Part shown: positions 1 through 64,000 of the stretch, one piece after another
Layout: each line of letters starts with the position of its first letter
Numbering within the stretch: the stretch's first letter is position 1
Assembly: GCA_965178125.1 (NCBI GenBank)
Contig: OZ237744.1
Span: 248,001-312,000 of the forward strand
Direction: 5' to 3'
From: Bilabrum cf. latius
Lineage: Eukaryota
DNA length: 64,000 nt
The notes under the pieces: model-generated
Seen by the model: the letters and a program-made list of their open reading frames with translations, nothing else
Told to the model about the DNA's origin: nothing
The model's database searches: none
Translations under genes and position numbers: made by a program

Positions 1-258
1 GGGCTTGGGATGCATCCAACCGTGAGAGTACGGTAGTACACGTCTGGTAGGTGCGGCCACTTTTGTCTGTCGTCAAAATAGTGCGACCGAGGCGGCAAGC
101 GACGGCGACCATCCCAAGCCGGAACCAGCATTTTTACACCGGACTTGCACAGCTTCCGGGGCTCAGGCATCGAATTCTTGCCAGGCCAAGCACCTTCTAC
201 TTTACTGATTAGCATATTCAGTCGATTTTATAGTCTTTCGCAAGATTGGGGCAAGCCA

Positions 259-3200
259 ATGCTAGCTGACCGCCAGCAAAATGGCTGCCCGTTCACCACG
301 ACCTACGGCTAGCGGATGCAAATGTCTGTTTGTTGGTCATTTTCGGTGTTCGTTTTCGTCGGTATAATGATCGGGTTTCCATTGACTCCCAGAATACTTC
401 GAGGCGGCGACGCTCCCCTCGCCAGATCTGCTCGAGAGCCTGAAACGCTTGCCGCAGTTGGTGGAGTCCTGGCGTGCATTCTCTTGGCTGCCCTAGCTTC
501 AGAGGTATTTACGTTGTGGGCACGAGAAGTTGAGAGTCAGAATAGAATCGTTCTATTTGGTCTCAATATTAATCGAAAAGAGGACGGCGGGATTGATGTA
601 CGGTGCAGACCCATAGGAAAGAGCGGCGACGCTCTCAGTGGCTTGACCACGGAAACCACGAAGTCTGGAGCGAGTCATGTGCCAAAATCTTTGGGTGATA
701 CTGAAGAGACTATGTCTTGGCAGCCCTGTGCATGGTGCAGACGTGGCATTGTGTGGGCTTGCCTTCGCTCTGAATCCGCGGAAGACGCCTCCCTTTGGCT
801 TGCAAGATCAGTACTGCTGGCGTTTTGGCCGTGTTGGTGCGACATCAGAAGTAGTTGTTGCCATCCTAAAGGAAACACTGGCATGAATGAGCCGTACTGG
901 GCTGAATAGCTGGAGAGAGACCTGAGACTCGATGCGGTCGTGGAGCAGCCATCCAGCGAGACTGACTCCTAGTCGCGTTCAGCGACCACACCAGCCCCAG
1001 CGGCCCCTTCAGGCTCAATCCAGCCAATAGAGTCTTCTTTACAGGAGGGTAGTGGGTTGCTCTCAGGCGATTCCTTGAACTCTCGTGCAGAGCACAGGGG
1101 TAGGGCTGGCAGGCGCCATGCCCGCAGGGGCAGTGGTGCAGGCGTGGAATCGGCCGTAGCAGGAAAGGCGCCTGTTCGATACATTGACACGCAGCATGTG
1201 TCGCAATTGACTCCCCGTGCGGCGACCAGCTCTGCCCCTGGCAAGTCGCGCGTGTCAGAGAACCCTCCGACTACGCCGCATGACTAGGAGCATGTCAGCA
1301 GGAGCCGAGCAGGGCTTGGCCGAGGGCACAAAGTTGCAGCGGCAACTAGATTCTTGGGAACTGTCGCTGTGCCTGTAATTGCAATCTATATTATCACGGT
1401 GTACGCGGCGGTGCTGGATATCTGCAATGGGCCTGGACGGGGGAGCGGCAAGGTCGTGACCATGTGGATCATGTGGCCGATCATCGCAACAATAGACTAC
1501 GATAGAGTTGCCGTACCGTGGCTTGGCGTGCAGTTGGCATATATTGTATGGGTATTAGCGTTGAATGCAACGATAAGTGGATTAGGAGGAGCTTGGCCGT
1601 TCGGGAGGGCAGACCTCGACGTGCTGCCAGAGGAGCACAGGCACAGTTTCACGAGCCCGCTGGGTCTGAATGCGGTCGGTCAAGCTGGGTTCTTGATATC
1701 TCTGTGGTGCTTTGAGACCGTCAATATTTTACCGGCGCTTAGTCTGGATACGACTTACCTGAGGTGGAGGGTCGAGGTGGCAGAACGTGAGCTGGTCGAG
1801 TCTCGCGTCCGGGCAGCTGAGCAGCAGCGCGCCATCGTGAATACAGTAGTGTCGCAAGTGCCAAAATTTGCATAGGATTGCATGAATCAAGGCATCACGG
1901 CATTTGAAACGAAACCCGTTGTGATGGCTGTGAGAATCAGTGGGCGGCCAGACGAACCAACTCCCGTGCCGAATGCCGGTCTCCCGGATCGCCCAAAAAC
2001 GAGCGGTGGGGCAGGAGGCGGGGCTGCTTGCCCGATTGCAGGCAGAAGCGGCTTGGACACCGTCGATGGGGGTGGGTTCGTCGGCAGGATGCCACTGGAG
2101 GCAATTTGTGAGCACATGGATCGCCAGGTTTCAATGGGCTGCACAAATAGCTCTTTGGCAGGACAGGCTGCAGCGAATGGATCACGTGCCAGCCACCAGC
2201 GCCCTTTCATTCCAATGCTGAAATTATTGCTGTAGAGGTGTACGTCCGGCCGATATTCGGACGCACCAACAGGTCTAGCAGCATCTTCGATTGGTGTGTT
2301 GAGCCGTCAGCAGCAGGCAAAGCTACGGTGGCTGTGTCAGTTTCCATCCGGTGCAGTGCCAAGCTCCACAACCGTGGACAAGATCCACGCTGGCGTGAGT
2401 CTGGCTGTTCCAATCGATGCCTCCCCTATTGGCGGTGGAGCCTCGGTGAGCAGCGCCCCTCAGTTGTCATCAGGGCGTGAATCTGCGCAGTGGACCGGGG
2501 CAGTGGGCATGCGCACTCCGACCCGCCGCTGCCCTGATGTGGACCACAGATCACGCAGGCATTTGACTTCACTGTCGTGCTTGCATGGCATCAAAGCGGT
2601 GCTTGATGCTGCCTCGTCCTCCTTCACACTAGACGGGACGTGCCTGAGCGCAGGCCTCTCGTGCCCAACATCGTCCCAGAGCTCAATGGCGGTAGGGCTG
2701 CTCGGGCTGCAGCAACAGCCACAGGAATGGCACGCCTTTGGCGGGGGGCGTTTACATGCCAGCCAGTTGGCAGCCTAGGCGCAAGCGTGCTCGGAGGCCA
2801 ATGTGGGCTGGGCCGCTACGTGCACGATTTGCTTATCCCGCCGGTCGCTCGATCGACTTGAGGACACTCTTCTCACTCTCCGAGATGCTATCGAAGCAGC
2901 ATAGCAGTGGTACCTTGCTATGGCTTCCGGGCAAGACCCTGAACGCCAGCACGAAGTTAGCTGGGGCATTGCAGGGTCATACTCAAAGGCTGTGGTGCTA
3001 GCGACAGCCGCAGTGCTGGGTAGGACAAGGAAGGCCAAACAAGGACTGGATCTGGTTCTGAGTTGGCTGTAGTCATGTTCAGATGCTACGATGCCGTAGG
3101 TGTCAGGAGTACAAGAATCTAGCAATGATGCAGGGCTTCAATTTAGCAACAATCCAGCTACGAGACAGCCGCAAACCGGCTTCAACCAATCCACCAGTGA

Positions 3201-6200
3201 GCGGTACGTTGTCCTGCAAGCTGATGTTGGCAAGTTGAATGGAACACATTTGCACGCAGGGCCGTGCGATAGGATTCATGCTCACTCTGGCTCAGGCATG
3301 CGCCCGCAATCGGCTTCGATGGACATTTCGCAAGCTGATGCACGTAGTCTGATTGCAGCCATTCAGCACGCCATGGAGCTTCTGTCCAGCAACGAACCCC
3401 GCGCAGCTGCAGCAGCTGCAGCTACATAGAGCGAGCTAGCTGCGGAGCATTCCGCTCCCAAATGGGCCACTGCTGTGCTGGTCAGCCTCATGAAGTCTCC
3501 GAAGGCGGGCGCAGCTGACGAGAGGCCTGATGCATCCGCTGCTGCTGGTCGTCCCAAGGCTTTGCGTGAGGAATCAATTCCCCAGCCACCCGAGGCGCTT
3601 GCAACGTCGCACGCTGCGCTGATTAACGCGCCTGTCACTTCACTTGGGGCATGGTCGGCAATTGTTCTGCCGAAACGAATGCTTGATCGCTCGAATTGGG
3701 GAGGCAAGAGTGATAGACGATCGAAGGACTATCTCGGGCTTGCGTTAAAGTCTCCGATCATCGCATGTATGCAAGGGATTGGGATATGGATCGATATCTG
3801 CTTCAGCATTTACAGTTTGTTTAACTTGGAGTGCACTCAACACCCGGATCAACCACCATCATTTGGCCGTGTTCTGGTGATCTTCCTGCCGAGTCTTCTC
3901 TCGTCCTCTTTGGTCGTTGGGTGGTCGTCCAGCGCGCTATACCAGGGGCAAGAAATGCAACTGAAGGAAAGCATGACCCTGTTCGCGATCTAGCTGCTCG
4001 GTCACATGGTGTATAACCTATTGCTACGATTCAATGTCGTCCTGCGCACCTGCACGTCGGCGGCCATAGTGCTGATGAACAACTCGACCACACTTTCTAG
4101 CATGCTGCTGGCGTCTGGCGTGCTGGTGCTGTATGGCACCAACCTTGCCTCTGTAGCCATTGTAGTTTTAATCGGATTGTGTTCGGGCAACGGCCTGTAC
4201 CGGGGTATCGTCTCTGTCTTTGCGCGGCTGGGCGCAGCGACGGACCTAGAGAGCATCGGCTAGGAGTGTGACAGAGTGTTCCCACCTGACAACGTAACAG
4301 CAGATGTGCTGGGATCAATCGACCTTATCATTGACGTTGCTTACGTCTTAAGCTTTGCAATTATACAGTATTTCTCCGGAATGGTTGTGTTTGTCCAGCT
4401 GCAACGCATGAACAGGATCGTGGCAGAGGCCCGAGCCGTGCAGCAGCAGTCAAAGAACAGTCTCGAGCGCGCTGCTGCCACACTGATGCCCAGGCGGGTT
4501 TTGATAGCATAGACAAACGATCCTCGTAGCAGTGAAGTCGGTCGAAGGTAGCATGGTGTCTCCTCATCGCACGCGGGCCGGTCGCAGCCTCCTGCGCTGT
4601 AGGCCGGAAGCACGGATACAGCTTCGGTGAGCAATGGGCAAATCTCCCTCGGGAACGGACTTGTTGCTACCCTGTGCCTTCCGGGTTTTGACCGTGTGAG
4701 CAACATTGCGGGACCACTAGCAACGCTAGCTCTCTTTCGTCGGATTGGTCAAGCTGCAGATGCCGTGTGTGCCATCTATGGGGCACTTCGGGTGGGGCAA
4801 GGGGAGTCGATGATGCAGCTGGGGTGGTTTGCGTCGCAGCAACCCGACTATTCGGGCGACAAGGACGAAGCAGTCCCCGCCCAGCTGCGCCTACGCGGTG
4901 TTTTGGGGGCGTGTGAGTTAGCTCGTCGAGCTCGCGAGCATCTAAGAGAGATGCAGGTCGGGCTAGGCGTTTCGGTTGGCGTGTCGTGTGGGGCTGTTGG
5001 GGTCACGATGGTCGGCCAGCACCCCACCACACTTGCATTTCAAGACAGGGTTCCTGTTTCCGTTGGCCATGGGCCGCTTTCGTACAGCAAGCGGCTGAGC
5101 AAGCTCGTGCCTGTTCGGGGGCGTGAGTGGGGCCTATCTCTATCGCGCGAAGGTACAGTCACTGTTTCCGAGGATTGTGTTGCTGGTCTTGCACCTGCTT
5201 GTCCCTGGTTATCGAAGTTTCTGATAGATCCAAGAAGCCGACCAGAGCGTTTCTACGGCCTTGACTTCACGCAGGACAATTGCTCTGTCGTGGAGTGGGA
5301 GTGTGTGTTAGGGCTGGCCGAACTGTTCGGGATGCTTCCGGGAACCCGGCCTCAGCAGCACGTCTTGGCCAGCAAGACCAGGTCAATCCTGATTCATGTG
5401 TCCAACTTGGAGCCACTACGGCTGAACAATAATAGCAGCACTGTGCCAGTTGCGTTTTTTGAACAGCCCGAGCCTGCAATCGCTGGGATCGATTGGGTGG
5501 CTAGACTGATGGAGGCCACTCGCGGCTCTACATTTTTCGCTGAGTGCGAGGACGATAATACGGAGGAGGAGCACACCACAAGCAGTCGCACTAGCATGGC
5601 TGCGGAATTTCACGGCACTGGAATCGAAGAATGGCTCGTGAGCTGGACGGCTGTTGCAGCTGGCCGGGCTCCAGAGAGCAGGCTGACCGGGCCGCTGCCT
5701 TGCCGTGACGTTGACGTTGGGATCCATGGCATGCTCGTTCGGCTCGCTGCGTTCGTCATTCCACCCGCTTCCTCTATTTGGAGCTCTTCTACGCAACCCC
5801 AGAATGCCAAGAGCCTCGTCCTACACGCCACGCTGGTTCATAGAAGCGACAGTATGGGTTGCCAGCGATTGATGCAGCGGAAGTCACCAATGTCGCCAGT
5901 ATCTTCGATAAGGCCCAGCTCGCCGCCAGATACATAGCGTGTTGCAAAGCCGCCAACAGTGGCATTGAGTTCCAATCCGCTGAGCATGAATGCGATGCAC
6001 ATGCAGATTTCTGACTTCAAGTGGCTCAAATTACTGGGAGAGGGCGGGTTTGCGAGAGTCTATGCCGCGGTGCATCGGCACACAGGCCGGCGAGTGGCGC
6101 TGAAGGTCAGCGCCAAGTCCAGCACGAGCTAGAACCAAGCGGCAGACAAGCCATCAGGGTCATATTCCGCTGGGAACTCCTCGAGGTAGGCCTCGCTTCG

Positions 6201-9171
6201 CGCTGATGTCGTGCGGAACGAGGTGGTTGCGCTAGCGAGGTGCTCGACCAGCAACGTGCCAGGGCCTTGCCAAATCCAAGGGCTGGTTGTCTCTGAACAG
6301 GGAGTGGGTCTCGTCCTCGAGCGGGTGAGTGGGTGCAGTTTGCGTGATGCAGTTAGGGGCAAATCTGGACGATGGAGAGTATCAGAAAACAACGTGCGGC
6401 CTTTGGCCAGGCAGTTGGCTTGCACGCTGGCAAAGCTGCACGCAGCCGGAGTGCTGCATCGCGACCTGAAGCCGTCAAATATGTTACTGGACGATGACGG
6501 TACCGTGCGTCTCGTAGACTTTGGCCTCGCGGCCGATTTAAGTAGCTCTCGCAAGAAGCAGCCTTTCGCACTGCCAGGATTCGATGATGTCTTGCCCGCA
6601 GCACCGCATCCTGGCATGCCTTCGCACCGGGTCGGCGAAGAGGTCAGCGATCGCGACGATGAGGCTAGGCCTTCACGTGGATGGGTAGCGGAGGACTTGC
6701 AAGGGCACGACGAGGTTGGCCTAGGCCTGCCTCTGCTGTTGCCTGCTGGCAAGGACGCCATGTGCTGCGGCGGATCCAAGCCGTACTTGTTCAAAGTCTC
6801 CTCCATGCCTGTCTCGGTGTTGCTTGTTGGCCACGCTGTAGCCCGAGGCAAGCCAAAGCACCGTGTCTACACCGAATCGTTTGACGCCATTTGCAAATAG
6901 TTTGGTGAGTTCGCCGGTCCTGAGAAGAAGATGGAGCTAACGACAGCTCAAAGCCTGTCGGCCGCACGAGTACTCCTGCATCAGGAGCCTCTACTCTACG
7001 ACTGCGTAGTTGTATGCGACTTAACCGATAGAGCGGGGCAAAGCACTGCCAGTGCTGCATCTTCTGGCGATCACGACCACGTGCTGCGCCGGCACGCCCC
7101 GAACGATCGGTCCAGGTTAGTCAGCGCCATCTGGAAAGCTGGCAGCATTGCGGCCAAGCGGATGCTCAAGACTGTTGGTCTGCCGCAGATCGCTGAAAAC
7201 GTGGCAGCAATGGTCCCTCAGGCATTCACGCTTCAGGCGGATACTACAAGCCTACCTTCTGTTGATGCTGTTCGGGACATGCTGGATCAGATTGTCGAAG
7301 TCGGTAGGCACCGTGACGGGACGATACCGCGGCTGCTGCGACAGAAGCGCCCTGAAGATGCAGTGGTCCCAGCTGCCAGCAGAAGCGACGAAACGGATCC
7401 TCCGACAGCAGCCGTGTAGACGGTCTAGGACTCAGCAAGCTTGCCATCATTGCCCGCCACAGGACTGAGACCCAGTCGGGAGTCGTCATCGCGATCAGCT
7501 GCCGCACAGCGGCCTGAGCAGGGAGGCGCCTTGCCGCAGGTGCTGACCAGCGGGAAATTAAGGAGTCCAAGCGTCACGGACGGGGAGCGGAAGCCTGCCA
7601 ACGCTCCAAGCACGGGCCAAGCCCGAACTGGTGGGAACTTGCATCGCACGCGAGTACACGTAGCTGAGGTTCAGGTTGCAAATAGCGACGATTCCACCAA
7701 CCACGGGGAATTCTCTTCAGTGGCCTCGAAAACAAGCACAATTGTGGCGAACCAGCCTGGTACTGACATCAAAAGGACTGTAGATTACATCTATCGCGAG
7801 AAGCAGCCCTTCGTGGCAGGCATAGCTGGCACTCCTCTCTTTATGGCCCCTGAGCTCTTCCAGCACCAGGGGCAGAGAGCCAGCGATTACTGGTCCATGG
7901 GTGTGACGCTGTTCTGGCTGCTGTCAGGTAGAATGCCATTCGGTGGAATATCAGGTAAGCAATAGCTCGCAGCTGCTCGCAAGGGCGACATCTCCTGGCA
8001 CCTGCTGCCGGGCTGCCTCAGCCCAGCCTGCATCGATCTGCTCAGGGGGCTGCTGGAGCCGAACGCTAGCTAGCGATACGATGCTGGCGTGCTGGCGTGC
8101 CATCCATTTCTTGCTCCAAAAGACGAGGGTACCTTCGAGCAGGTGCTAAAGGTGGGTCGCGATGGCCACCGCCGTCTGCGGCGCAGCAGGTACTGGGCGG
8201 CAGATCACGAAGAGATCTTGGATGAGCTCGTGCTTGCAAGATGGACAGTGGACGATCCATTCGTACATGCCGATGAAGGATGCGATGCAGAGCACGAGCC
8301 TGCTGCTCAGGCTCAGGGTGGGAGCAATGGCGGGGTTCAGGTAGTGCGTGGCCAAGAGGTCACCGCAGAGGGATGCGCCGAGAAGGCAAGTGCACTGGTC
8401 AACCATGCCGGCTTGGAGCTGCTCCCGGTAGCTCCCATGACGGAATCGCTCGGTAGCAGTGTGTACAGGAAGGTAAGCTCTGCCAGTGCGTCGGGGAGCG
8501 CGGTTTCAGGACACGCTATCGTGCTCGATGCGACGCACCGGCCAGGCCATCAGGCGGTAAAGTCCCGCAGCAAGAAGCAGCGCAGCTACCGCAGAGCCAG
8601 AGAAAAGATCGAGCAGACGGCCAAGGAGGCAGCAATCCTGGAGATATACTGCCACAGGGTAGGCATACGCATGCAGTGGAAGCTTGCTGCCTTCGCCAGG
8701 CCACGCTGCATTGGAGCCGATGCTGTAGAGGAAGCGGCTGTCCGCGATCTCAATGCGATGGGATATGACCGAGATTCCATCCGCGTCGCCATTCTGAGGC
8801 AAAACCACAAAATGCAAGTCAGTGCTGAGGAATTCGCGGGCTGGGACGATGGGGTGGGTGGGATAGGTGCGCTCGATGCCGCAGTGAGCCTGGCCAGTGG
8901 TAGCGGAAGCGGTCGTTCGGGGGAGCACAGCGGTGGCTATAGCACCACAACTGAGCAGCAGGACGGTGAAATCGACCAGGAGAGCAGCGGGCTCGGTGCT
9001 GGCGATGAGGAGCTTGGCGGTGGCGTAGCGGGCGTGCTAGGTGAAGAGGGCAAATCGCGAGTGCACTACGGCTTCGCGTCGCTCCCCAGCGTGATTGAGG
9101 CGAGAGAGTCTGAAATAGAGGAAGGGGCAGCAGGTTCGACCACGAGCCAGATCGACTCGGACGACTTATGA
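259..9171 (+). CDS. Large membrane protein (~2970 aa): two TM clusters, degenerate class III nucleotidyl-cyclase-like region(s), C-terminal AGC-like Ser/Thr kinase with a long activation-segment insert
   Basis: ORFs at 316, 1057, 1354, 1882, 2296, 3100, 3475, 4006, 4276, 4627, 6211, 6931, 7441 and 8089 are all in one frame, separated only by TAG (~24), and end at TGA 9169-9171. Kinase motifs: LGEGGFARV and VALK (~6030-6110), [11 protein letters not shown], then GTPLFMAPE and DYWSMGV (~7830-7900), HPF (~8100). Start uncertain: ATG at 259 or 316, and the frame is open back to base 1. Confidence 0.85.
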
Positions 9172-9330: not shown

Positions 9331-10908
9331 TCATCCCTTGATCACTCCCATCGGCTTCAGCTTGACCGCCTTGCTCGATATTCCCGCCGCGTGGCACTCG
9401 TCCACCACCTGTGTCACGTTCTTGTACGACTCGTCAGCCTCCTCCATGACCAGCTTGGGCGATGCCACCCGGATGCTGATGCCCTTCTTGCTGAGAGAGT
9501 CCAGCACGTGCGTGTAGTCTAGAGTACGCCTGCTCTTGTCCCTGCTCTTTGCCCTGCCAGCGCCGTGGCACGTCGATCCCCACGTCTCTTTCATCCCTTT
9601 CTCCGTTCCGGTCAGCACGTACGAGCACGTGCCCATGCTGCCTCCAATCAGCACCGGCTGCCCGATGAACTGGTAGTCCACTGGGACGAGGGGATGATGA
9701 GGCCCGAACGCTCTTGTGGAACCCTTCCTATGGACTAGCAACTTCTTCGCCTTGCCGTCCACGAGATGCTCCTCGATCTTGGCCATATTGTGGGAGGTGT
9801 CATACACCACCGCCATGTCGAGGTCGTCCGGCGAGCTGGTGAAGATCTTAGCAAAGGCCTAACGCGCGAGGAACGTCATCGCCGACCGGTTGACCCAGCT
9901 GTAGTTCGCAGCAGCCGCCATGGCCTTCAGATAGTCCTAACCCTCAGTCGACCAAATCCTTGCGCACGCGAGCTGCCGGTCATTGGGCACGATGTTGTCC
10001 CGTCGCATGGCGGTGTCCATCTGAAGCAACGCATCGGATGCCACCTGGTGACCCAGTCCTCTGGACCCAGAGTGGATCATGACCACCACCTGACCCACCT
10101 CGTCGATTCCCATCCTTTTTGCTGCGGCCTTGTCGAACACCTTTTCTACATACTGTATCTCAGCGTAGTGGTTTCCGCTGCCCAGCGTGGCCACCTGCTG
10201 CAGCCCCCTCTTCTTCGCTCGCTTGGATACCTTGCTGGGGTCTGCCAGCAGCATCCTGCCCTGCTCTTCGCAGTGCTCCTTGTCTTCTGCCCACGAGTAT
10301 CCCTCTCGCACGCTCCAATCCATGCCCATCTCTAGCACGCTCTCCAGGTCCGACGACGTCATCGGGATCACCCCCTTGGAGCCTACCCCGACCGGCACGT
10401 GGTTGAACAGCTCTTGCGTGAGCTTTTCTTGCACCGGACGCACATCTTCCACTCGCAGGTTTGTTCGCAGCAATCGTACGCCGCACCCTATGTCGAAACC
10501 AACGCTCCCAGGGCTCACGACTGCTTCCGGGTCGGCCATGTCGAATGCTGCTACCCCACCGATAGGAAATCCGTACCCGGCATGCATGTCTGGCATCGCA
10601 AGAGACTCGCCCACAATACCAGGGAGCGCAGCCACATTTGCAGCCTGCTTGAAACCTGGCAAGAACACGCCACGCTGCCCCCGCTCAGTCATGTTGCAAT
10701 ACCTCTCAAATTCATCGAACGCATGCTTCTCCAAGTCCCCTGCAACAAAAATCCGAGCTGTTGTCCTCATATTCGGGACAAAACCTTTCGCTATCCTGAG
10801 GCTAGTATCGTCCGCACTCGAGATGAACTCCTTCTCCCGAGAAAACAGGGAGGCTCTTGACTTGGACGACCCGCTGCTCGCCGCAGAGCTTCCAGCAACA
10901 CCTGCCAT
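9331..10908 (-). CDS. RTCB: tRNA-splicing ligase RtcB (eukaryote/archaeal type), 525 aa
   Basis: Motifs [62 protein letters not shown] and C-terminal [11 protein letters not shown]. One frame with two internal TAGs (9937-9939, 9859-9861) at EG*DYLK and FLAR*AFAK. Confidence 0.97.
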
Positions 10909-11309
10909 ACTATATTTTGCGAGAATGCAACGGACGTCGATATACGACAGAGCAAGAGCGCGCGGATTCCATTTCTGCCCGAAACCGGAGTGGTTTGCAA
11001 GAGGTCCTTTGTAGCGTGTTGAACTTTCAAGAAGAAGATTAAAACCGGAACCACACTGTTGGCAACTTCAAGTTGAAGAACGACCGCGCACTCGGGGCCA
11101 GACAGTTCTGCGACAAGCAATTTGTGTCTGTAAACAATGCAAGTTTGATGCCATGGTCACACGCCACCTTCGCGACACACCCTCTAAAACACACGGACCA
11201 GAGCTACGGAATTTATTGACGCAGCTCTGGCTCCATTGGGACGATTCCCGTCACCCAGTACTACTAGTAGCCGGGTTGATTTTCCTACCATGCCCTGCAA
11301 GTGACACGA

Positions 11310-13272: not shown

Positions 13273-13439
13273 CGTAATCCTGAAAATGCGCTTCCCCGAC
13301 AAATTCGGTTTCGGCCGTGGCCGTTGGTGAAATGGCACGGTTCAAACTTCAGAAGGCCGATTCGGTGCAGCGCTTCCCAATGCATAAAACATGGCGATTT
13401 TGACGTATGTACAGTAGACTAGAAATATGCATCGATCGC

Positions 13440-48192: not shown

Positions 48193-48916
48193 AATCCATT
48201 GGACCTAGACTACAGATCAGATTTGTTCCTTCAACCACACCCATTGGCTCATCTTCACGGCTGCTGCAAACCCCACTGGTTGGCAGTTACCAAAAAGAAA
48301 AATTCCTGCCCCCGGTCCTGCGGACCCACTGGGCTTCACCCCGAACGACTGGTTCTTCACCAGCCCACCTGAATGCGGTATTCATCTGACACTACGAATG
48401 TACACGCCACTTTCCCAATGCACGCGACTGGCCTCGTCGCCACATGGCTTCCTATTCCTGTCCCCCGCCCTACGGACTGTGTGCTTTGCTCCCTGCATTG
48501 CCACCCTGGCCCTTTCCTTTCAGCTTGCATGTGCCGGTCCTTGCCGACCTACCGTGCACGCCATCTGTCCACCCGCCTGTTGGCCCTCTGTGCGCTGCTG
48601 GCCATGCATCCCGCCGCCACTCGCGTCTCTCTGGTGCCTTGCACCTGGAGGCCCCTTTCTTCCCGTTGTGTTCTCCCTGTTGACACCGCACTATCGTCGC
48701 CTGTGCCGGTGTCCCCCTCTGTTCCTCTCCACCTCCTGTCCTCCTGCGCCCGCCTCGTCTTCCGGCTCATCTCTGCTCCGTTGTTTTAATCCTGATGTCC
48801 GATCTTACCACTGGCAGTGGCCTGGTGGTGGGCTCGAAGTGCAACTGCAGCGTGATGCCATGTGCGCTGCTGCATGCAGTCTCGTTCCCCATTATTCACC
48901 GCCGCTCGCCAGCACA

Positions 48917-51915: not shown

Positions 51916-54542
51916 TCACTCGTTCGCCTTGCCACGCATGCCGAGCACCAGGAAGAAGTACGCAAACACGCGGAAGCCCACCACCATGCCGGCCAGCACG
52001 GCCAGGTCGCGGACCAGATTGGACGGGGGCAGGTTCAGGTAGTCGAGCACTTCGTCGCCGTCCGAAAAGAGGCATCGCTCGTCCGTCTCGCACGGAATGT
52101 CCACGCCGTCCCAGGTCACGATGGCCAACGCCGAGAACCCGTACTTGAAGAAACTGAAGTACTCCCTGCAGTTAGTGAATAAACAAGATGATAGGGGGCT
52201 AGGCTACAAATGGAAGGAGGGTATGTAAGTGACCCGCACAGCACACACCAGAGCACAAGTACAGCGCAGGAAACGACACCAGGGTGCAGAGGCAGGTTTC
52301 TCACAGCCAGATGAAGTACACTGGGATGGACTCGGTGTTGATAAAGAAGCCGGAGAAGAGGAACAGCGGCAGAATGGTCACGGGGCCCAGCGCCAGCGCG
52401 ATCTCAACGGATGGAGCAAGCGCGCTGATCATGTACCCGAGGGAGAAGGCGGTGTTGGAGGCCAGCAGCACGATGCCAGTGAACGCCAGAAATGTGCCGA
52501 AATCGTCGCGGATGCCCATCATCCAGTAAGCGATACTGCAGAAAATGATCGGGAAGATGAACTGGAAGCTGACCTCGGAAACAGACCGAGATAGGTACCA
52601 TGTGTCGCTCCTGTACGAGCCCGCTTCCAGCTCGCGCCGCAGGACGGGCTTCTCGAGCGGGAAGCTCTGCAGCACGCCGAAGACCGAGCTCATGGACTGG
52701 TTGATCAGGATGAAGAAGATCGCGCCGTTGCGGTCCTGCACGCCCTGCTGGTTGTTGCTGAGCCGCAGGAAGATGAGGCCTGCGGGTGCATAGTATAGAC
52801 AGCGGGAGCACATAATCGGAAAGGGGTTGAGCTGGCGGAACGAGAGCGAACGGACTAATCGATCAAACAAAAAGGCTGTACCATTCGCAAGCATGCGCAA
52901 TTGTCGGCCGGACAACTCACCCGCGATGAGAGCGATCACCAGGGTCTGCCCCAGTCTTGCATAGGTCAGCAGGGGGTCTCGGGAAGACGCTGCGAACGCG
53001 CGCCTCTGAAGCAAGCAGCACTGCTTGCACCAAGGGGCTTGGATGTGTTCCCTGGCATCGAGCGGGCCGAGGTCCTGTGCCTTGGAGACGGCCGGCCCTT
53101 CCTCCTCCTGGGGTGCAGAGGCGGGGAGTGCGGCCTGGGGGACAGGGGCCGCACTAGCAGAGCCTGATGCGCCAGAGGACTCGGCCATTTCAACTTGTCC
53201 GTAGGTGGGGATGCTCCTCGCCATCATGCGCTTGTGCACGTCCGATTGCCTGAACCTGTCGGCCAGGTCCTTCGCCTTGAACTTGGTGTGCTCCAGTGCA
53301 AGCAGCCACCAGTCCGCCGGGTTGAAGTGGTCGGGGCACGCGAGGGAGGGGTCGATGGACGCGAAATAAGAGATGGCCTCCTCTCTCGGGCCATAGTACA
53401 CGATGTGTCCCCCAGCCTCCTACTCGGTCGGCCTGGTGCCGTCCTCCTTAGGGGGGTCCTTGTGAATGAGGCAGAGGTAGTTGAACTCATTGTAGATCTG
53501 AGAGCTTGGCTGGTGGATGGTCGCAAGGACCGTGCGGCCTTGCTGGGCGATCTGCTTGAGCATCATGACGATGTTTAAGGCCTTGGCGCTGTCCAGCCCG
53601 CTCGTGGGCTCGTCAGCGAAGAACAGCGGAGGGTCCGTTATGATCTCCGAGGCGAAGGCAAGCCTCTTTCGCTCTCCCCCCGAGATGCCCCTCTGCAGGC
53701 CCCTCCCGACGTTACCGATCACGTTGTTCCTCACGTCCCACAGGCCCATGGCCTTGAGCAGCTGCTCGACACGTGTCGCGACCTGCTCCTCCGAGAGCTC
53801 CTGGTCCAGGCGGAGCATGCCGGTGAAAAAGAGGTGCTCGTAGCACGTGAGATTTCCGAGGAAGAGATCGTCTTGCATGACGTAGGCGCTATTCTGCGCA
53901 AAGATCTCCGAGTCGACCGGACGACCGTTCACCTGGATGCTGCCCTCCGCCTTCGTGTTGCGCTGCGCAAGCACGTTGAGAAAGGTTGTCTTGCCTGCTC
54001 CAGACGACCCCATGATGGCAATCATGTCTCCGGGGTTCTGCGAAACAAACAGTACACAGGCAAATTACATTTCGCGCGTCAGCTTAGCTCGCGGCTCGAG
54101 CACGTCAGCGTCACAAATACGGCCTTAGGGGGCCACAAGACGAGCAAAAAAGAAAGCAATTGCCAATTAACATTATAAAAACAAGATTTGGGCGCAAATG
54201 TACCGATCACAGCCAGTATCAGGATGGCAATCGCCACGAATTACACATTCAAGCACTCACTGCCCTGCCTGAAAGGTTGTTCAGGATTGCTCGCTTTTCG
54301 GTGGGCTTTTGTGCGCAGACACCAGGAGCCTCAGATCCATCGATCTCAACGTCTGCCTTGACCCAAAGATTGTCCCATTCAATGCAGACCGGCTTGCACG
54401 GCTTCAGGGTTTGCTCCAGCAGTACCCTTCCGCGACTTTGCTGCGCCAAAGAGTCGGCACTGGACTTCTTCCCAGCGTACATAGTATTCTTCTGCATTTC
54501 AATATCACCAATGCCCTTCTCTTCATTTCCAGGAGCCGACAT
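51916..54542 (-). CDS. ABCG (White-like) half transporter, 4 exons
   Basis: Exons 54542-54261, 54037-52921, 52779-52305, 52165-51916. Walker A GSSGAGKTT, signature ISGGERKR, DEPTSGLDS, TIHQPSS, NPADW, then an ABC2 membrane domain. One TAG at 53420-53422. Ends TGA. Confidence 0.95.
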
Positions 54543-55013: not shown

Positions 55014-58000
55014 ATGTCATCTGCACTTGGTTTACCCGTTCATCTTTTCGTACTAGTATCTGTGCAGCGGCAGATCGATGCTGCTCTCGCCTTTCTCACG
55101 AAGCGTCACATCCGGACGAGCTTGCTGCAGCTTTTCAAGATGTACACCACCCACAAAACGAGTGAATCATGCGGCCCGATGGACTTTGTGTTGCACTTCA
55201 GAAGAATTTGTGGTATAGTTCCAAAGTTCTATGGCTTGAGGCAGACTCGACTAAAGCCAGGATTTCTTGAGCAGGAGAGAGCAGCGACAGCTCCTTTCGA
55301 TTCGACGGCCCAAGACTCCCAAAGCGGAACCAAAGGTGCAAATAATACGGACCAAATGCTCGATATGTTAGAGGTAGTCATGACCCCTCATTCAGGTTCT
55401 GCTGCAAGGCTGCGTGGACGCTCCGGAAGATTCTCAAAACAGTTGCTCCATTGGTACACCAAATAGGAAATGGAATCAGCAAGCGATAAGTCGGGCGGTC
55501 ATGTTTTGCCTGCTCCATTAGAGGTACATGGTATTACTTTGTTCCAGAACTCTTCTCCTCGCGATGGTGTGGCTCCTGCTGGAGCAGCTGATGGTGCGGG
55601 GGCCGTTGCCATCGGCACTGGGGACAGCGGACGAGATCGATCCGCTGAAGGCGGTTCAGTGAATTCAAGCAGCGCTTCCAGCAGCAGATCAGTCCCCATG
55701 AATGGCCAATCGCACGGTGGTCCCGCGGCAAGCAGCCCTGCACCCGACGCAACTTCGACCTTAATCACAGGCACTGGCACCGCGAGCCTCGCTGGCAGCA
55801 GGAAGGGCCGCCGTAGTACGGGCGGCAATGGCGCCCCGAGCACCCCACCTCGAGCGCCACAGACCCATGGTGCAGCTGTGTCCCCATTCGAAGGACAGTC
55901 CCCGCAGAGGCACCCTGGCCAGTATAGGGCCCGGGTCCGGGCCTCGGAGGCACTTGCTGAAATGGTGGCCCCGCCCTCGCTCCCTGGCGCACCATTGGCA
56001 ACTGCCGAAGACCTTGATTGTAGTGCCACGGGTTCTACGGCTCCTATCAGTGTGAAAGCTCTTTCTGGTGCACTGGGAAGCCAGGGAGGAGGTTCGAAAG
56101 CACCGGATCGGGCTGCCCAGAGCAGTTCATGTTCCAGTATCACGCGTCCATATGGAGCGGGAAGCTCTCCTCCATCCAGTGCAGCGGCTCTCGTAGCCGC
56201 ATCGTCTTTGCTAGCTTCAAGTAGTGCTGCTGCCAGCAGTGCAGCCAGTGGAGCTCCAGCCCAGCCCTGCAGTTTCTCAAACGTTGAATCATACCTGAAG
56301 GGGCAGGATGGCTATTTCGACCAGATCGTGCATGTGCAGCGCTACAGCGGCAAGCCGGCCTCGTTCGGTCAGACTGCACGGCGGTTGCACCCGTAGATTG
56401 ATGCTGTGCTGCGATCGAAAGGAATTGCCAAGCTGTACAGCCACCAGGTCAGGGCGATCGATGCGGTCAATGCAGGCAAGCACGTGGTGATCAGCACGTC
56501 TACCAGCTCAGGCAAGAGCCTGGTGTTCAACGTGCCTGTGTTCGAGCAGCTGTTGTCGGAGCCTAGCGCTGTTGCTTTGTACATGTTTCCTACCAAGGCG
56601 CTCGCGCAGGACCAGCTGCGCGCATTGCACGAGCTCATCGACGGCAACACTGCGCTGAAGCAGGCCATCCGTCCAGCCACATTCGACGGTAAGTTTCGCT
56701 TGCGGTGGCCCTTATGAATACAAAGAAGCTGAAGCATTGCCTGCTTGCCCCGCATCGCCTCTGCACACGTCTTCCTACTCTGTATTCTCCAACCATCATA
56801 GGTGATACACCTCATGACGAAAGGAGCAGAATTCGGTCCCGGTGCAACTTAATACTCTGCAACCCGGATATATTGCATTGTGCTATGCTTCCGTACCATA
56901 ACACATGGTCGAAAACCCTGCAGAACCTTCGATTTGTTGTCCTCGACGAGTGCCACGTGTACAGGGGCGTATTTGGCGCACACGTCGCCATGGTGCTTCG
57001 GCGGCTGCAGCGGCTTGCAGTCAGGTACGGTTCGTGGCCCCAGTTCATCGCTTGCTCTGCGACCATTGCAAACCCCGGTCAGCTGTTCAGGCAGCTTGTT
57101 CCGCACATTAACGCTGGCTGGCACGTCGCAAAGGATATGCAGGGCTCGGTGAGGCCTGGTGCAGCAGGGACATCCACCGCTTCCAGCTCTGCAGACAAAG
57201 AAGCCGAGCTGGAAATGAAACTATAGCAGGTTCGTGCTGTACCACTAGCTGATGGTGCGATGCCATTCAGACAAATTGCTGGCGAGAACCAGGTGGATAT
57301 ACCCCGCACAACAGCCATTCTGGATACAGATGCTGGCAGCAGGGATCCCAGCGACGTATCTTCCGCTTCGAGTATCACACCGGAGCAGACCAAATTGGAT
57401 GGCATTCAAGGAATGACAAGCGTATCAAGAGGTGCGTTAGGGTCTGCTTCGCAGGTAGTGGGCCTTCCCAGCTGGGATCGTGGGGTGGAGGTTGTGACGG
57501 AGGACGGCTCGGCCAGCGGCCAGCGCAAGTTTATCGTGTGGAATCCGCCTCTGATCGAGGACATCATTGAGCGCAGGATGCAGCAAGCTGAAGCGGAAAG
57601 GCAAGATGCAGAAGAAGTGTTCGGGCTAGGGCTCGCCTCGAAACAAGACAGATTGGATAGCAAGACAAGCCAAAGCAACACCTCACGGGCAGGTGGTGCT
57701 CAAGCCGTCGGCCGGAAGCGGAACCGCAAGCAGCAGAAGAGGCAAGAAGCAATAGCAGCAGTCGAAGATGAAGAAGATTATTCCCAAAACTCGAGACGGA
57801 AAGGCAGAAAGCGCCAGGGCTTCTCCATGGGCCAAACAAGGGCTGCCATTGCGCACTCACGCAGGACCGAGGTGCTGTCGAATGCCGAGAGGATGCTCGC
57901 AAGCAGCTCTGGGATGACACCCGAAGCATCAGCCGTGGATTTTGTGATGGGTCTCATGAAGGGGGAAGCTGGTGCACGGAGTACGAAGAAATTGAGTGCA

Positions 58001-60424
58001 GAGAGCGATACGAGCCCTAGCGCCACCTCAAGCACGGCAACTGATGTCCTTGATGGAAAGGCCACAATAGAGCCGGAGAAAGTGGCTGCTGCAGCGGACA
58101 ACAGTAGCACACCACAAGCTCCTGCGAGGAAAAAGCATCGAGTAAGTGGAGGAAGTGGCACAAGAGGCATGTACCACGGATCCAAGGCTGACCGCCTGCG
58201 ACCTACTGCATCCACGAAACAGGCTCACACTGTGGCTGGTGCCCCCAATAATCCAACCCGCCTATCCTCTAGTCGATTGATTTCCAAGCAAAGTAGCCCC
58301 GATGGTCCCCTTATAACGGTCCCGGACGGCTGGTTTGATAAGTGGAAAGAGAGAAGGGAGGACCACCACCCAGCTCGGAAGTCGTCCATTGTGGAGGGTG
58401 CGAGGCTTCTGGCAGACCTGGTGAAAGGTGGCATGAAAACTTTGCTGTTCGTTCGAGTGCGCAAAGTTGCTGAACTGCTGCTGCAGTACGCGCACGAGTT
58501 CTTGGGTACCGAGCATGCCCACCTGATTCCCCAGGTGAAGTCGTACCGAGGGGGTTACATGAAGCAGGCGAGGCGCACCATAGAGAGGGCCTTGTTCTCT
58601 GGTTAGCTCCTCGGTGTGGTTGCCACCAATGCACTCGAGCTTGGCGTCGATATCGGAGCGCTTGATGCAGTGGTTCTGCTGGGGTACCCTGGCTCTGCCG
58701 CTTCCATGTGGCAACAAGCGGGTAGGGCAGGCCGTGGCGGGCGAGACAGCGTGGCGATACTCGTCACGTGGGATGCTCCGGTGGACCAGTTTTTCGTGAA
58801 GAACCCCGGAAAGATGTTTGCAAAGCCTCCCGAAGCCGCCCACATCGATGTGCAGAATCCTTCCGTGCTTCGCTCCCACGCGATATGCGCTGCGTTCGAG
58901 GCTCCACTCACCCCCTTCGACTTGAGGCTGTTTGGCGCTGCCCTTGGCCCCGTCATGACCAAGCTGCGTAGACAACAGGTTCTCGTCAGCGTCGGAACTG
59001 CTCAGCTGGGGAGCTCATCATCGAGCTCTGCGGAACCAGAGTCGGGCTTGCCTTGGGTGAGTGGATTGCTAGGTGGTGGCGCTGGTTTGGGCTCACTTGA
59101 AATCGGGGCTGCGATGGCCCCTCCGTCCCAGATGCTATCCGCCTTTGAGCCTTCACAGTCTATAGGACCAACTTCACCAAGCGCTGACAGTGCCATGTCG
59201 TGTTCGGAGCAAGACTCAAGCGCTGCTCAGTGGAGGGCGAGCAGCGAAGTTGCGGCCGCTAGCTCCAGGGGTGGCGGTGGCGGGTTCTTGCCGTCAAGCG
59301 CAGTAATCCCACGAATGTCGTCATCTTCATCTGTGTCTACTAATGACGCTTCGGTTCTGTAGCCGGTCAAAATAGTTGCCTTTCGCTCCGCACCTTGGGT
59401 AAAGTCCCCTCACCGGCACACCAGCATACGTGCCATCGATGATGTCAGCTATGACGTTGTGGACGTGGGCAATGGTGGTGTTGTGATAGACAAAGTAGAG
59501 CGGTTTAGGGCCCACTTTGAGGTGTACCAAGGTGCCATCTACATGAACCAAGGAGCAGTGTACAAGGTGCACAAGCTAGACACCAAGCAGCATCGTGCCG
59601 AGGTGCGAGTCAGCAGCGCTCAATACTACACGCAGGTGCGCGACTTTACGGATACTTACGTGGTATCTCGGTCTCGATCGTGCCTCGGAAGCAGGACTCA
59701 CTTGGGCCGGTTTGAGATTCATACAAGCATATACGGTTTCCGCAAGGTGTGGAGGCACAGCGGTGCCATCTTTGAGATGTGCGACATGACCATGCCGCCT
59801 GTGAAGTACGTCACGCATGCTCTCTGGAGCGACATCCCGCTCGAGACAAAGCGGCAGATGGACGCAACGGGTTTAGACTTTATTGCAGGCTGTCATTCTG
59901 CTTCGCATGCGGTAATAACCGTGCTGCCTCTGTTCGTGCTGTGCGACAAGCGAGATCTTGGTTGCGAATGCCCGAGCCCGTTCCAGCGTAGGGAGTAGCC
60001 GCTCCGTTTTTCCGTGTACGACAAGCAGGCAGGCGGGATCGGCATTGCTGCGGCCGCTTTCTAGCAGGCGGAGTCCATTTATCGGGCTGCGCTGCAGCTG
60101 TGCATGTCTTGTAGTTGCGAGGACGGCTGCCCCAGCTGTGTTCACGATTTGGCGTGTAGCGAGTTCAACTACGTGTCGTCTCGGCTCGGGGCCATTGCGG
60201 TGCTCGAAGCAGCACTGTGCGCTGCAAGCTCCGGGAGCGATAGAAAGATGACCGATGGTGATGGAGAAGCTGCCAGTTTAGGCGCTGCCAGTGGCTGTTC
60301 CCATGCCTCAACGAGCCACCAACGAACGCTGCCTCCTCGTGTCTCGTAGTACGGTGGCAAGCACACATTGGCGATGGTAGAAAGGCTCCAACGCAGCGAT
60401 GGGAAAGGAGGCAAGCGTGGATGA
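55014..60424 (+). CDS. HRQ1: Hrq1/YprA-like DEAH helicase with C-terminal DUF1998 Zn-binding domain, 2 exons
   Basis: [23 protein letters not shown]; intron 56689-56801 restores [55 protein letters not shown]. About 8 internal TAGs, TGA at 60422-60424. Start uncertain. Confidence 0.88.
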
Positions 60425-60721: not shown

Positions 60722-60947
60722 GGGTGCGCGGGTCCTGAGCTGCCGGCCATCTCATGCATCCACAGTGCTCAATATGACTGCAAAGTAAATAATGATTATA
60801 GGGTGCCACACTGAGCCAGTTTGTGTGCTCGATAGCTCCCCCACCGGCGCACGATGGGCAGCTTATAGCAGGACGGGGACTCAGCTTGCACTGAATCGGA
60901 ATCAAAACATTGATGCGCGACCACGAAATCTCACTTTGCTCTCCAGC

Positions 60948-61529
60948 ATGAATCCAGCACGAAAATCCAGAGAAGGCGCTTCAAGTGGTTCACTACTTAC
61001 TGCATTTACCCATGAGATTAGGGTTCCACTGTGGGCATGTCTCGCAGTGGGTGCCATCTTGGTGGTCGTCTTTGCGTTTTCACAGTTTTCATCTTCGGCG
61101 GGATATTTTATGCCTTCCATTCGACGAGGATCCGATGAAGTCCCTACTGTATGTATTCCATCGACTGGTGGCAGTTGCTCGCTTTCAGAGGCCCCGCCAA
61201 GTCGGCAGCAGCTCGGGCACTAGACGTGGACTCTGCTGCATAAGATAGCTGCAGTATATGAAGACACACCAACAGCAGAGTAGCGGGAAATGCTCCTTGA
61301 ATTTTTTAAACTTTTCTCATGGTTGTATCCATGCGACGAGTGCGCCACCCATTTTCGAAAGCTGTTGCAAGAGCATCCTATCCGGGCTCACACCAGAAAG
61401 GACTTGATGCTATGGACTTGTGAAGCGCACAATATGGTCAACGATAGGTTGGGACATGATTAGTTTGAATGCACAATCGAAGGGCTGGAGGCGCGATGGG
61501 GAGGCTGCGGCTGCAGCGAAGAGGAATGA
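60948..61529 (+). CDS. Erv/ALR-family FAD sulfhydryl oxidase (Erv2-like), 193 aa
   Basis: Manual translation through 3 TAGs gives an N-terminal TM, LGH*TWTLLHKIAAVY, PTAE*RE, LYPCDECATHF, CEAHNMVNDRLG and a C-terminal CGC tail, then TGA at 61527-61529. Confidence 0.93.
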
Positions 61530-62003
61530 GAAATCTAGCGACCACGAAAGATCTAGCCCGAGCATCTGACAGTATAAAGGACCGACCTGATATTGGTTCG
61601 GGCATGGTACGCTAAACATGGGGAAGTGGCAAACGTCTGGTTGCAGACAGCCTGGAGGAGAAGCAGCAAGGGCTGCGCATTATGCTACCGGCAGCACGGC
61701 CACGGAGCAGTACAGACACGGAGTGAGTGGGCATAGTCGAGCTGATATAGCCACTTGATTGTAAGGAACATACGAAATATATTTATTCCTGTCTGCTGGC
61801 ACCGCCTCATGATGAGGCCCTCATCAGCCCTTCTGCGGCGCCACCATCCGCCGGAACCTCGTTTGCTCTTCGCTTGGCAGGGTTCTCAACGGCTTGCTCT
61901 GTGAATTTGATATGCACTTCTGCTAAATTGTGTCTGTCAGTTCCGAGAGGGTGTTCGTGACAGTTTCTACTGTCGCGAACTTAATTAAGACAGCACCATC
62001 GCC

Positions 62004-63401
62004 ATGAACTTGTGCGACATCTTAACAGATAGCCTATGTTCTCTCCGGCAAAGCGGCCGCGGTCTATGGTACCCATCCTCCGTTCCTATAGTAGAGCATG
62101 TTACTGAAGGCATAATTCGGAAGCATATGAGCGAGAGCATCCCGCTCTTGTGCAAAGGTTCAGCAAAGTCTTGGCCAATAGCACAGGACACGCGAGGCTT
62201 GGAGGATATCAAGAAGTGCATGGGATAGAATGAAGTTGTCGTTGATGTTACACCAAACGGCCATGGGGACGCTCCTGTGACAGTGGGGGGCAAAAAGGGG
62301 CGCACGATGTTTGTAAAACCGCACGAACTGAAACTGCCGTTTTCGGAGGCTATTGAAGTGATCTAGGCTCAATCGATGGTACGTACAAGTGACGAAACCG
62401 TTCAACTTTCTGTAGCGCGGGGGCTGGCGGATTGCTTGCCTTCTGAATGGTGGCGAAAGACTTCTTCGTCAGGACAGCCCCACGCAAGGCTATACTACAG
62501 CCGCCAGAACGACTGCCTGCGACAGGAGTGCAAGCCAATCTCATCAATCCTCTCTAGATTTCAGACATTAGCTTGGAGCAAACCGCTCGGCGAGCCCGAC
62601 GCCGTCAATTTTTGGATGGGGACACACCACTGCACGACAACCTGCCATAAAGACTACTACGACAATCTCTTTGCAGTGTTGCACGGCCGCAAACACTTTC
62701 TTCTTTTTCCTCCCACGGATGTTGCGTTCCTGTACGAGACACCGCTTCCGACTGGCAGGTACGTCCCACGAGCGGGCTCAGAGGCGGCCGCTGGAGCAGC
62801 TGGAGCTCTGCACTGGGGCGTTGAAGTCGAGAGGCAACCTCATCACGAAGAGAGACATGATGAGACTGCAGCGGGGGCCGGCGGCGATGCATGCGGCAGC
62901 AGGCAAGCCAAGGGATCGGTCGAGGATTCCAGCTTAGAGGAGTCGCCCAGCGCCGCACTGGCAGGAGGGGCAGCCAAAGCCAACGGTGGGACTGCGGCTG
63001 GAGTGACGCCCGCGTGCAGGCCAGAGGCAGAAGACGCCGAAGGCAAGCACGGCGATGACGAGACTGACGAGGACGGTCTGGCATCTGCAGTGCACACGCC
63101 CTGGATCGCTGTGAACCCCGACGCACCGGACTTCGCCAAGCACCCGCTGTCCTCGCTGGCTTCACCCGTCGCAGTTACCGTAGAGCCGGGCGACATCCTG
63201 TTCCTTCCTGCATGTTGGTATCACAGGGTCAAGCAGGAAGGCTTCTGCGTATGTGTCAATGCGTGGTACGACATGAAGTTCGGTGCGGCTCACGCCGCGC
63301 TCGAAGCTGCAAGCGGCTTGGGGAAGGTGGCGCAAAGCCTTGCGGTCGATGACTAGAAGAAGATTGCTGATGCTGTGCTTGCAATGGATGACGATGATTG
63401 A
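62004..63401 (+). CDS. JmjC/cupin_8 protein, JMJD7-like, 465 aa
   Basis: VDVTPNGHGDA, DAVNFWMG, HKDYYDNL (HxD), GRKHFLLFPP, PGDILFLPACWYHRV, VNAWYDM. TAGs at 62226, 62364 and 63354; TGA at 63399-63401. Confidence 0.88.
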
Positions 63402-63515
63402 CGAATTGCTTACGAGAAATTGCAAACGTCCTCGGATCTCCCAACACTCGGTACTTTGGTGCATAACCTCATCCGTCGGTGGATTCGTTCCCTGCGGCCC
63501 CACGCGAGAAACGCA

Positions 63516-64000
63516 TCATGTGCGGCCCCACGCGAGAAATGCAGACACGCAGATCGACCCCGCCGCCAGCAGTACAGCCACCCCGATGGACAGACCGGCC
63601 TCGCCCAGCCTCTCCTCCCAGTATAGAGACGGGTTCGTCCCGCGCACAAGCAGATCGCCCCGGCTCTAGGTCCCACTGGGGGTGGCACTCATGCAGAACG
63701 CATGCCCGCAGGTCCCCACCACGCATAGCAACGCCCACCCCACACAGACCAACACGGCCACATCCTCCCATAGCCGCTGCCACCAGGACATGGCGTTCAC
63801 GAACGAATGCAGTGCCCTGCCCCTGCGGCTCATCTCTTCTTCGCCTGTAGCCCCAAGACTCGAGCTGGACAACAAGTGCCCCATTCTGGGGTCCGTGGCA
63901 TCGGACACACCGCTCCACATGAGTGTCTATGCATCCCATTGCAGCGCCTGCAGTGCCCTTAGCACTACTGCTGTGGCAGGATACATGCCAATCGTGCTCG
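63516..64000 (-). CDS. 3' part of an unknown membrane protein (continues beyond the window)
   Basis: Frame is open from 64000 to TGA at 63516-63518 with two TAGs, and has two hydrophobic segments. Confidence 0.6.

Follow-up and report, generated by a model that had tools for sequence, protein, structure and literature searches.

UAG is very probably read as glutamine in nuclear DNA of Bilabrum cf. latius, a GC-rich eukaryote with UGA as its working stop codon

Reassignments of nuclear stop codons are rare, and changes of UAG alone are rarer still; for a change of UAG alone to glutamine, the reports so far concern chiefly certain ciliates and a single anaerobic flagellate. UAG is reported to be read as glutamine, with UAA and UGA as stops (the content of NCBI table 15), in Iotanema spirale of the Fornicata (PMC5304391, Panek et al. 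2017) and in Protocruzia tuzeti and two phyllopharyngean ciliate lineages (PMC11687900). Code 6, in which both UAA and UAG mean glutamine, is described from most ciliates, hexamitid diplomonads, some ulvophycean green algae, Streblomastix, and Amoeboaphelidium (PMC11687900). UAG alone means leucine in the rhizarian exLh and serine in Scotinosphaera (PMC5304391, PMC11687900), and PMC6733595 covers plastid codes only. According to PMC13524828, every giant virus isolated so far was obtained from a host with the standard code. Here we analyzed a 64-kb stretch of Bilabrum cf. latius DNA (assembly GCA_965178125.1, contig OZ237744.1, positions 248,001-312,000 of the forward strand), hereafter the window, in whose own coordinates all positions are given. 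A reading made from the letters alone (the sequence-only reading) had proposed that UAG is a sense codon throughout this genome, most likely for glutamine; frame statistics, unedited spliced transcripts, conserved protein columns, and a close relative agreed with this proposal. TAG stands in nearly all genes of the window, housekeeping genes included, is retained in spliced mRNA, falls at glutamine positions, and is required as a stop by none of the gene ends examined. We consider it very probable that in the nuclear DNA of this GC-rich eukaryote UAG is read as glutamine, UGA is the working stop, and UAA is not a sense codon, with the identity of the residue argued for by comparison of sequences.

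The window has a guanine plus cytosine (GC) content of 56-64%, GC-rich as the sequence-only reading had described it, and its Pfam matches are those of typical eukaryotic nuclear genes on both strands. Read with the standard code, its longest stop-to-stop frame was 844 amino acids (aa). When TAG was taken as sense, five frames of at least 1,000 aa were obtained (4,939, 3,056, 1,853, 1,243, and 1,136 aa); taking TAA as sense brought no gain at this length, and taking TGA as sense gave zero such frames. Stop codons were counted in 18 stop-to-stop open reading frames (ORFs), 18,340 codons in all, which carry Pfam domains or are part of the same genes. Their coding frames held 100 TAG, 0 TAA, and 0 TGA, whereas the remaining two frames of each ORF together held 292 TAG, 98 TAA, and 661 TGA. 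This result indicated that TAA and TGA are barred from the coding frame and that TAG is not. The total bears out the manual count of about 90-100 that had accompanied the proposal, and at least one TAG occurred in 16 of the 18 ORFs; only the granulin exon and the terminal exon of the gene for serine palmitoyltransferase had none. Beside 546 CAG and 194 CAA, TAG makes up approximately 12% of the glutamine codons and thus is a minor, fairly rare one. If the ratio of TAA to TAG tracked that of CAA to CAG, approximately 36 TAA would be expected in frame (an arithmetic estimate). Their complete lack despite the 194 CAA indicates that TAA is not a sense codon, and the code is therefore not code 6.

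Retention of TAG in RNA was examined in public sequencing runs. Fourteen runs contain part of 9300-12600, and four of them (X1, X5, X6, and X7) were compared with the window over 9000-28999. The DNA run X1 provided an unspliced contig identical to the window over 11019-28999. Contigs of X5, X6, and X7, which come from two other studies, skip six GT..AG stretches on the gene strand (12468-12597, 12760-12984, 14108-14221, 14431-14562, 15824-15921, and 26800-26894) of 95-225 bases, and one X6 contig ends in poly-A at 17902. Because of these splice joints, which are missing in the DNA run, and of the poly-A end, X5-X7 are taken as transcript assemblies; no run is recorded as RNA, and their RNA nature rests on these two features. 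Six introns in 20 kb make the description of the DNA as intron-poor a fair one. Over the 20 kb, all four runs showed zero letter differences and zero gaps relative to the window. This part holds 24 in-frame TAG codons, at least 21 of which lie under the transcript pieces listed, again with 0 differences; one is intronic, and two lie under no contig piece among those listed, parts of the stretch (for example 19168 and 19177) having no piece there. Both TAG codons of the RtcB gene were covered by X5, X6, and X7 contigs without a difference, as were six of the eight in the leucine-rich repeat (LRR) protein gene by an X6 transcript piece; transcript contigs spanned 24050-26341 of the MIC60 gene, likewise with 0 differences, three runs provided transcript cover of the Pex19 gene, and three showed the GT..AG joint 26799/26895 of the phospholipase B-like gene. 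As far as contigs show, these identical spliced sequences exclude that the TAG codons are misassembled, edited to CAG, or spliced out; at contig level, the expectation that TAG would be kept in RNA without appearing as CAG was thus borne out.

These data bear directly on the explanation that the code has not changed at all and that the in-frame TAG codons are assembly errors, RNA-edited sites, introns, pseudogene lesions, or leaky read-through. Some of the 100 TAG are indeed non-coding or may be so: one, at 26831, lies in the intron between 26799 and 26895, and those at 34, 79, and 310, at the 5' end of the protein kinase-domain ORF, and at 48206, at the 5' end of the GH113-domain ORF, may be untranslated. 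Against this explanation, assemblies of DNA and of transcripts, made independently in three studies, are identical at every letter, 21 of 24 TAG stand in spliced transcripts (by the pieces listed), and TAA and TGA are wholly absent from the same frames. Furthermore, the housekeeping genes RtcB and Erv1 carry TAG within their conserved cores, and a relative at approximately 90% identity keeps its frames open across the same regions. An unchanged code is thus given next to no probability here.

The residue specified by UAG was examined in distant homologs. For RtcB, where glutamine had been predicted from the motifs EGQDYL and RQAFAK, human RTCB has Q at both TAG sites, and when 8,000 homologs were scored, the best 120 gave Q104/K9/E5/R2 in one of the two columns and Q119/S1 in the other, with no L or Y. 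Solved homologs of Erv1 align through all three of its TAG sites, and at 'PTAE-TAG-RE', for which PTxxQ had been put forward, three of the four distinct solved proteins carry Q and the remaining one, Erv2, carries E, which upholds the proposed residue at this site. When all codons were examined over 753 conserved columns of RtcB and the helicase, no other well-sampled codon departed from its standard meaning. The paralogous positions of the zinc-finger genes were uninformative, as AGG and CCG stand opposite their TAG sites in a variable linker.

Close relatives provided a second comparison. For three lineage-specific genes of the window, public protein collections contain standard-code ORF fragments with 83-96% identity. 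Outside the TAG sites, the close relative matched the window at 3,296 of 3,644 aligned residues (90.5%), and the 17 aligned TAG sites of the window were occupied by Q 12 times, K twice, S twice, and E once. Under a likelihood model built from the substitution counts of the same alignments, the log10 likelihood was -11.4 for glutamine and -27.8 for lysine, which puts glutamine ahead of lysine by 16, and below -33 for every other residue. The fragments P0250-P0252, 90-96% identical to the 4,939-aa ORF, carry Q, K, S, Q, Q, Q, E, and Q at eight TAG sites; P0253, P0254, and P0258, which align to the kinase-domain ORF, carry Q at seven of eight; and P0121, a relative of the helicase at 83% identity, carries K at one.

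The ends of the relatives' fragments point in the same direction. P0250-P0252 break opposite the window TAG at 31932 (residue 1013) and opposite a CAG (residue 2767), and the ORF of P0121 ends opposite the window TAG at 59360. Nineteen fragments of relatives align to their last residue, and the codon that follows in the window is TAG for 7 of them, a glutamine codon (CAG or CAA) for 6, and neither for the other 6. With glutamine codons plus TAG accounting for 4.9% of these proteins, 13 of 19 breaks at them has P = 1.7e-13; among the 12 non-TAG cases, 6 breaks fall opposite glutamine codons against a background of 4.3%. Some of the 19 fragments are merely 36-58% identical, and the fragments stem from gene callers that stop at TAG. 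This pattern suggests that the relatives share the code. Since ORFs of relatives at 84-96% identity, and perhaps further away, break at the same places, the code is probably common to a clade and not a feature of one strain. A metagenome scan with P0127 returned a single contig of approximately 1.5 kb (L001, 1-1493, 60% GC), which codes for the C-terminal portion of a helicase sharing 92% identity with P0127; its matched part is without in-frame TAG, and it is thus silent on the code of more distant relatives.

Several observations weigh against reading UAG as glutamine, and those on the residue speak for the alternative that TAG is a sense codon for lysine, glutamate, serine, leucine, or tyrosine, as in other known UAG reassignments. 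The other two TAG sites of Erv1 are variable in the solved homologs (A/S/H and V/K/I/D). The helicase TAG columns are mixed (Q39/E32/H21 and others; G108; E67/D37/Q4) and mostly hold E/D or R/K, with R or K at one TAG site in the eukaryotic clade of this protein. In solved structures, the TAG sites of the phospholipase B-like protein (PLBD) align with V, L, and K and those of JMJD7 with S and E; these sites are variable positions, which do not bear on the residue. The motif YNxxQxDP, which the sequence-only reading had offered for PLBD, failed as written: solved PLBD2 has L and PLBD1 has K at the aligned position, and the Q of PLBD1 comes one position later. TAG falls in just three strongly conserved columns of the 753 (Q in 2, G in 1), one zinc-finger repeat has TAG where, by translation, its sister repeats carry E, and 5 of the 17 sites in the close relative are not Q. 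Moreover, Q, K, E, and S are all one base from TAG, so that mutational neighbourhood adds to the pattern, and the ORF ends of the relatives were read as protein only, which leaves TAG there an inferred codon. Against another residue stand the 12 of 17 sites with Q in the close relative and the likelihoods, in which glutamine also exceeds glutamate or serine by more than 25 log10 units. The RtcB columns and the relatives' breaks opposite glutamine codons also speak against another residue. We therefore hold a residue other than glutamine to be very improbable.

The gene ends examined agreed with UGA as the working stop: TGA closes 16 of 16 and TAG 0 of 16. RtcB ends in ...VIKG followed by TGA, at the same last residue as human RTCB, and none of the Pfam-matched domains needs an in-frame TGA. 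The UBX-domain gene has a tandem stop, its frame ending CAG TAA TGA (the TAA and TGA at 14734-14739, minus strand). UAA is presumably also a stop; on the opposing side, this sole TAA at a gene end directly precedes TGA, and no standalone TAA stop occurs among the 16. To the same side belong five TAG at most 25 codons before the terminal TGA, two in the LRR protein gene (10 and 8 codons before it) and one each in the helicase, Erv1, and JMJD7-like genes. They raise the alternative of an ambiguous code, in which UAG means glutamine within genes and also terminates near some 3' ends, as in Condylostoma and karyorelict ciliates, or as UAA does in Blastocrithidia. These five TAG lie 8-25 codons before TGA, for four of them nothing shows a translated tail, and the sample is 16 gene ends. 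The Erv1 TAG at 61461, 22 codons before its TGA, sits within the Pfam-matched domain, and it is the only one near a gene end for which a second role as stop is excluded. Against an ambiguous code, no gene end needs TAG, all 16 frames continuing to TGA, and by a rough estimate approximately 4-5 TAG lie near gene ends where approximately 2 are expected, an excess that is not significant. Termination at UAG in addition to its reading as glutamine is thus considered very improbable.

By analogy with other lineages that read UAG as glutamine (PMC5304391), the change would involve three components. A tRNA-Gln with anticodon CUA would pair with UAG and not with UAA, and its simplest origin would be one change from tRNA-Gln(CUG); a eukaryotic release factor 1 (eRF1) with weakened recognition of UAG would keep its recognition of UGA and UAA; and the glutaminyl-tRNA synthetase would accept the CUA anticodon. 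The stop-codon-recognition motifs of eRF1 are GTS, NIKS, and YxCxxxF, and the eRF1 changes described are T32G in Iotanema and L69A in exLh (PMC5304391). A further point against the glutamine reading is that the decoder tRNA and eRF1 do not lie within the window, on which ARAGORN found no tRNA gene and Rfam nothing at gathering score. The genome assembly and transcriptomes are public, so that a search of the assembly would give direct access to all three components.

The genes of the window are listed in Table 1. The presence of MIC60, Erv1, and Pex19 indicates that the organism has cristate mitochondria and peroxisomes. The gene that had been labelled 'SPT2' encodes an LCB2-type serine palmitoyltransferase, with a single TAG in exon 1 (13150); among solved proteins it scores highest against Arabidopsis LCB2a (478 bits), followed by the human (449) and yeast (379) proteins. 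The 4,939-aa ORF gave sub-threshold matches alone (DUF4062, 17.6 bits against a threshold of 24.7; AAA_16, 28 bits; NACHT, 19.7 bits), and the DUF4062 match does not span the TAG site for which the sequence-only reading had put forward the motif xQxERD. This ORF may encode a giant nucleoside triphosphatase of the STAND type (signal transduction ATPases with numerous domains), as far as these sequence matches suggest, and among shorter proteins it matches near relatives only (fragments 89-96% identical). The kinase-domain ORF at the window start has membrane segments beside its kinase domain. The two frames of the helicase gene, which meet near 56.7 kb, are probably joined by an intron.

Table 1. 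Genes and ORFs of the 64-kb window, with TAG read as a sense codon
Feature	Position	Strand	Supporting match	In-frame TAG, introns, and stop
Protein kinase-domain ORF, 3,056 aa, open at window start	1..9171	+	Pfam Pkinase, E 1.3e-40	26 TAG; TGA stop
RtcB RNA ligase gene	9331..11067	-	Pfam RtcB, E 8e-161	TAG at 9937-9939, 9859-9861
LCB2-type serine palmitoyltransferase gene	11310..13274	-	Pfam Aminotran_1_2	introns 12468-12597, 12760-12984
Pex19 gene, main exon	13440..14186	-	Pfam Pex19, E 1.3e-36	TAG 14085, 14076, 14019; TGA stop
UBX-domain gene	14734..15906	-	Pfam UBX, E 1.6e-5	TAG 15778, 15586, 15229
Granulin-domain gene	16298-17902	+	Pfam Granulin, E 7e-18, on 17079-17561	last exon without TAG
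LRR protein ORF, 1,853 aa	18346..23907	+	Pfam LRR_8	8 TAG
MIC60/mitofilin gene	24093..26342	+	Pfam Mitofilin, E 1.6e-29	5 TAG (24246, 24657, 24675, 24729, 26127); TGA stop
Phospholipase B-like gene, exon 3' of intron 26800-26894	26895..28582	+	Pfam Phospholip_B, E 7.6e-117	TAG 26933, 28229
Giant uninterrupted ORF, 4,939 aa	28896..43715	+	P-loop, weak AAA_16/NACHT	24 TAG; TGA stop
Two tandem paralogous C2H2 zinc-finger genes	43722-45389, 46531-48192	+	Pfam zf-C2H2	2 and 1 TAG; TGA stops
GH113-domain protein ORF	48188..51598	+	Pfam GH113, E 6.9e-28	8 TAG; TGA stop
ABCG-type transporter exon	52301..54064	-	Pfam ABC_tran, ABC2_membrane	1 TAG (53420)
MrfA/Hrq1-like helicase gene	55014..60424	+	Pfam DEAD, Helicase_C, WHD_HRQ1, MZB	8 TAG; TGA stop
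Erv1/ALR sulfhydryl oxidase gene	60789..61529	+	Pfam Evr1_Alr, E 1.1e-28, residues 145-237	TAG 61221, 61281, 61461
JMJD7-like Cupin_8 gene	61989..63401	+	Pfam Cupin_8, E 3.5e-56; solved JMJD7 matches	TAG 62226, 62364, 63354; TGA stop

Some further features of these genes were observed. The zinc-finger paralogs have approximately 10 fingers each, joined by a fixed 'HMSTVH...GERKHEC' linker, and their upstream and N-terminal DNA is approximately 88% identical. Near the C-terminal end of the LRR protein (23600-23800, plus strand) lies a short tandem peptide repeat, in which TGRLG occurs several times running. The X6 contig of the granulin gene has a word depth of 5,365, far over its neighbours, depth being a poor measure of expression. 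At the boundary of the RtcB and serine palmitoyltransferase genes (10992-11054), many short X1 contigs of depth 475-500 start or end, and the long X1 contig begins at 11019; this segment has the appearance of a short dispersed repeat at which the assembly is interrupted.

The affinity of the organism was examined through its proteins. RtcB is approximately 70% identical to all homologs, with its best match in Cafeteria (74%), and in a FastTree phylogeny of 121 RtcB rows no supported clade contained the query. A helicase tree, a single-gene tree of 34 rows hand-picked from 121, grouped P0121 with the query in a nine-row clade that also contains two Cafeteria and five other sequences (Shimodaira-Hasegawa-like approximate likelihood ratio test, 100), apart from the 25 bacterial rows. 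The best helicase matches are otherwise these 25 Chloroflexota-type bacterial sequences, well apart from the eukaryotic clade (the window gene, P0121-P0127, and P0145), and a bacterial origin of the eukaryotic helicase clade is possible. Among the Atlas neighbours, the nearest named clusters were mostly Streptophyta. The Cafeteria-like leads (RtcB and helicase) and the plant-like leads (Atlas neighbours and the score order of serine palmitoyltransferase) thus disagree, and both are weak pointers drawn from sequence similarity. By its genome make-up, the organism is not a ciliate. Ciliate introns are very short, and ciliate macronuclear genomes are AT-rich, with UAA as the main stop in the lineages that read UAG as glutamine; the window, with a GC fraction of 0.56-0.64, introns of 95-225 bases, and TGA as stop, has none of these traits.

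The consequences of such a code reach annotation, evolution, and possibly viruses. Annotation under the standard code cuts most proteins of this organism and its relatives into pieces, as the public ORF fragments show. In a GC-rich genome with TGA ends, UAG would be expected to have been a common stop before the change, which argues against loss of the codon under AT pressure and for a route through an ambiguous intermediate. As a lead only, the organism is a candidate for the type of cellular host in which giant viruses with the same code could live. Open-access full texts and bioRxiv, searched without supplements, held no report of UAG read as glutamine in a GC-rich aerobic non-ciliate. A more far-reaching reading would be that the change of UAG alone to glutamine had an undescribed, independent origin here and is shared by a clade already represented in public assemblies. 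The lineage would be aerobic, free-standing, and GC-rich, would belong to neither ciliates nor metamonads, and could be a heterotrophic stramenopile related to Cafeteria. Its main stop would be UGA, AT-pressure codon capture would not account for the change, and such organisms would supply the host type so far lacking for giant viruses in which TAG means glutamine. We regard this combination as possible, though less probable than not. What the data support is that the type of code is already known and that this is a further case of it, unless the organism has already been described.

Among the systems described in the papers cited, code 6 lineages share the reading of UAG as glutamine by way of a mutated tRNA-Gln (PMC11687900); here 0 in-frame TAA stand against 100 TAG in 18,340 codons. 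Genomes of giant viruses and phages in which TAG means glutamine use the same table (PMC13524828), whereas the DNA studied here belongs to a cellular eukaryote with spliced, polyadenylated transcripts. The rhizarian exLh and Scotinosphaera share a UAG uncoupled from UAA in a non-ciliate nuclear genome, but their residue differs: the close relative never has L, and has S at 2 of 17 TAG sites. Iotanema shares more, namely the reassignment of UAG alone, to glutamine, in a non-ciliate nuclear code, with a predicted tRNA-Gln(CUA) and eRF1 change (PMC5304391). It is, however, an anaerobic metamonad known from its transcriptome, with UAA as main stop, whereas the present genome is GC-rich, ends its genes with TGA, and carries MIC60, Erv1, and Pex19. 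Ciliates with the table 15 type of code likewise read UAG as glutamine, stop at UAA and UGA, and carry UAG in most genes (PMC11687900). Their genomes have 27-54% GC, with UAA the commonest stop and UGA the rarest (PMC11687900), in contrast to 56-64% GC and TGA at 16 of 16 gene ends here, and the present DNA further differs by its long multi-gene contigs, its introns of 95-225 bases, and the non-ciliate best named relatives of two of its genes. Thus, what is unusual in this case is the setting of the code, a GC-rich genome with TGA as stop.

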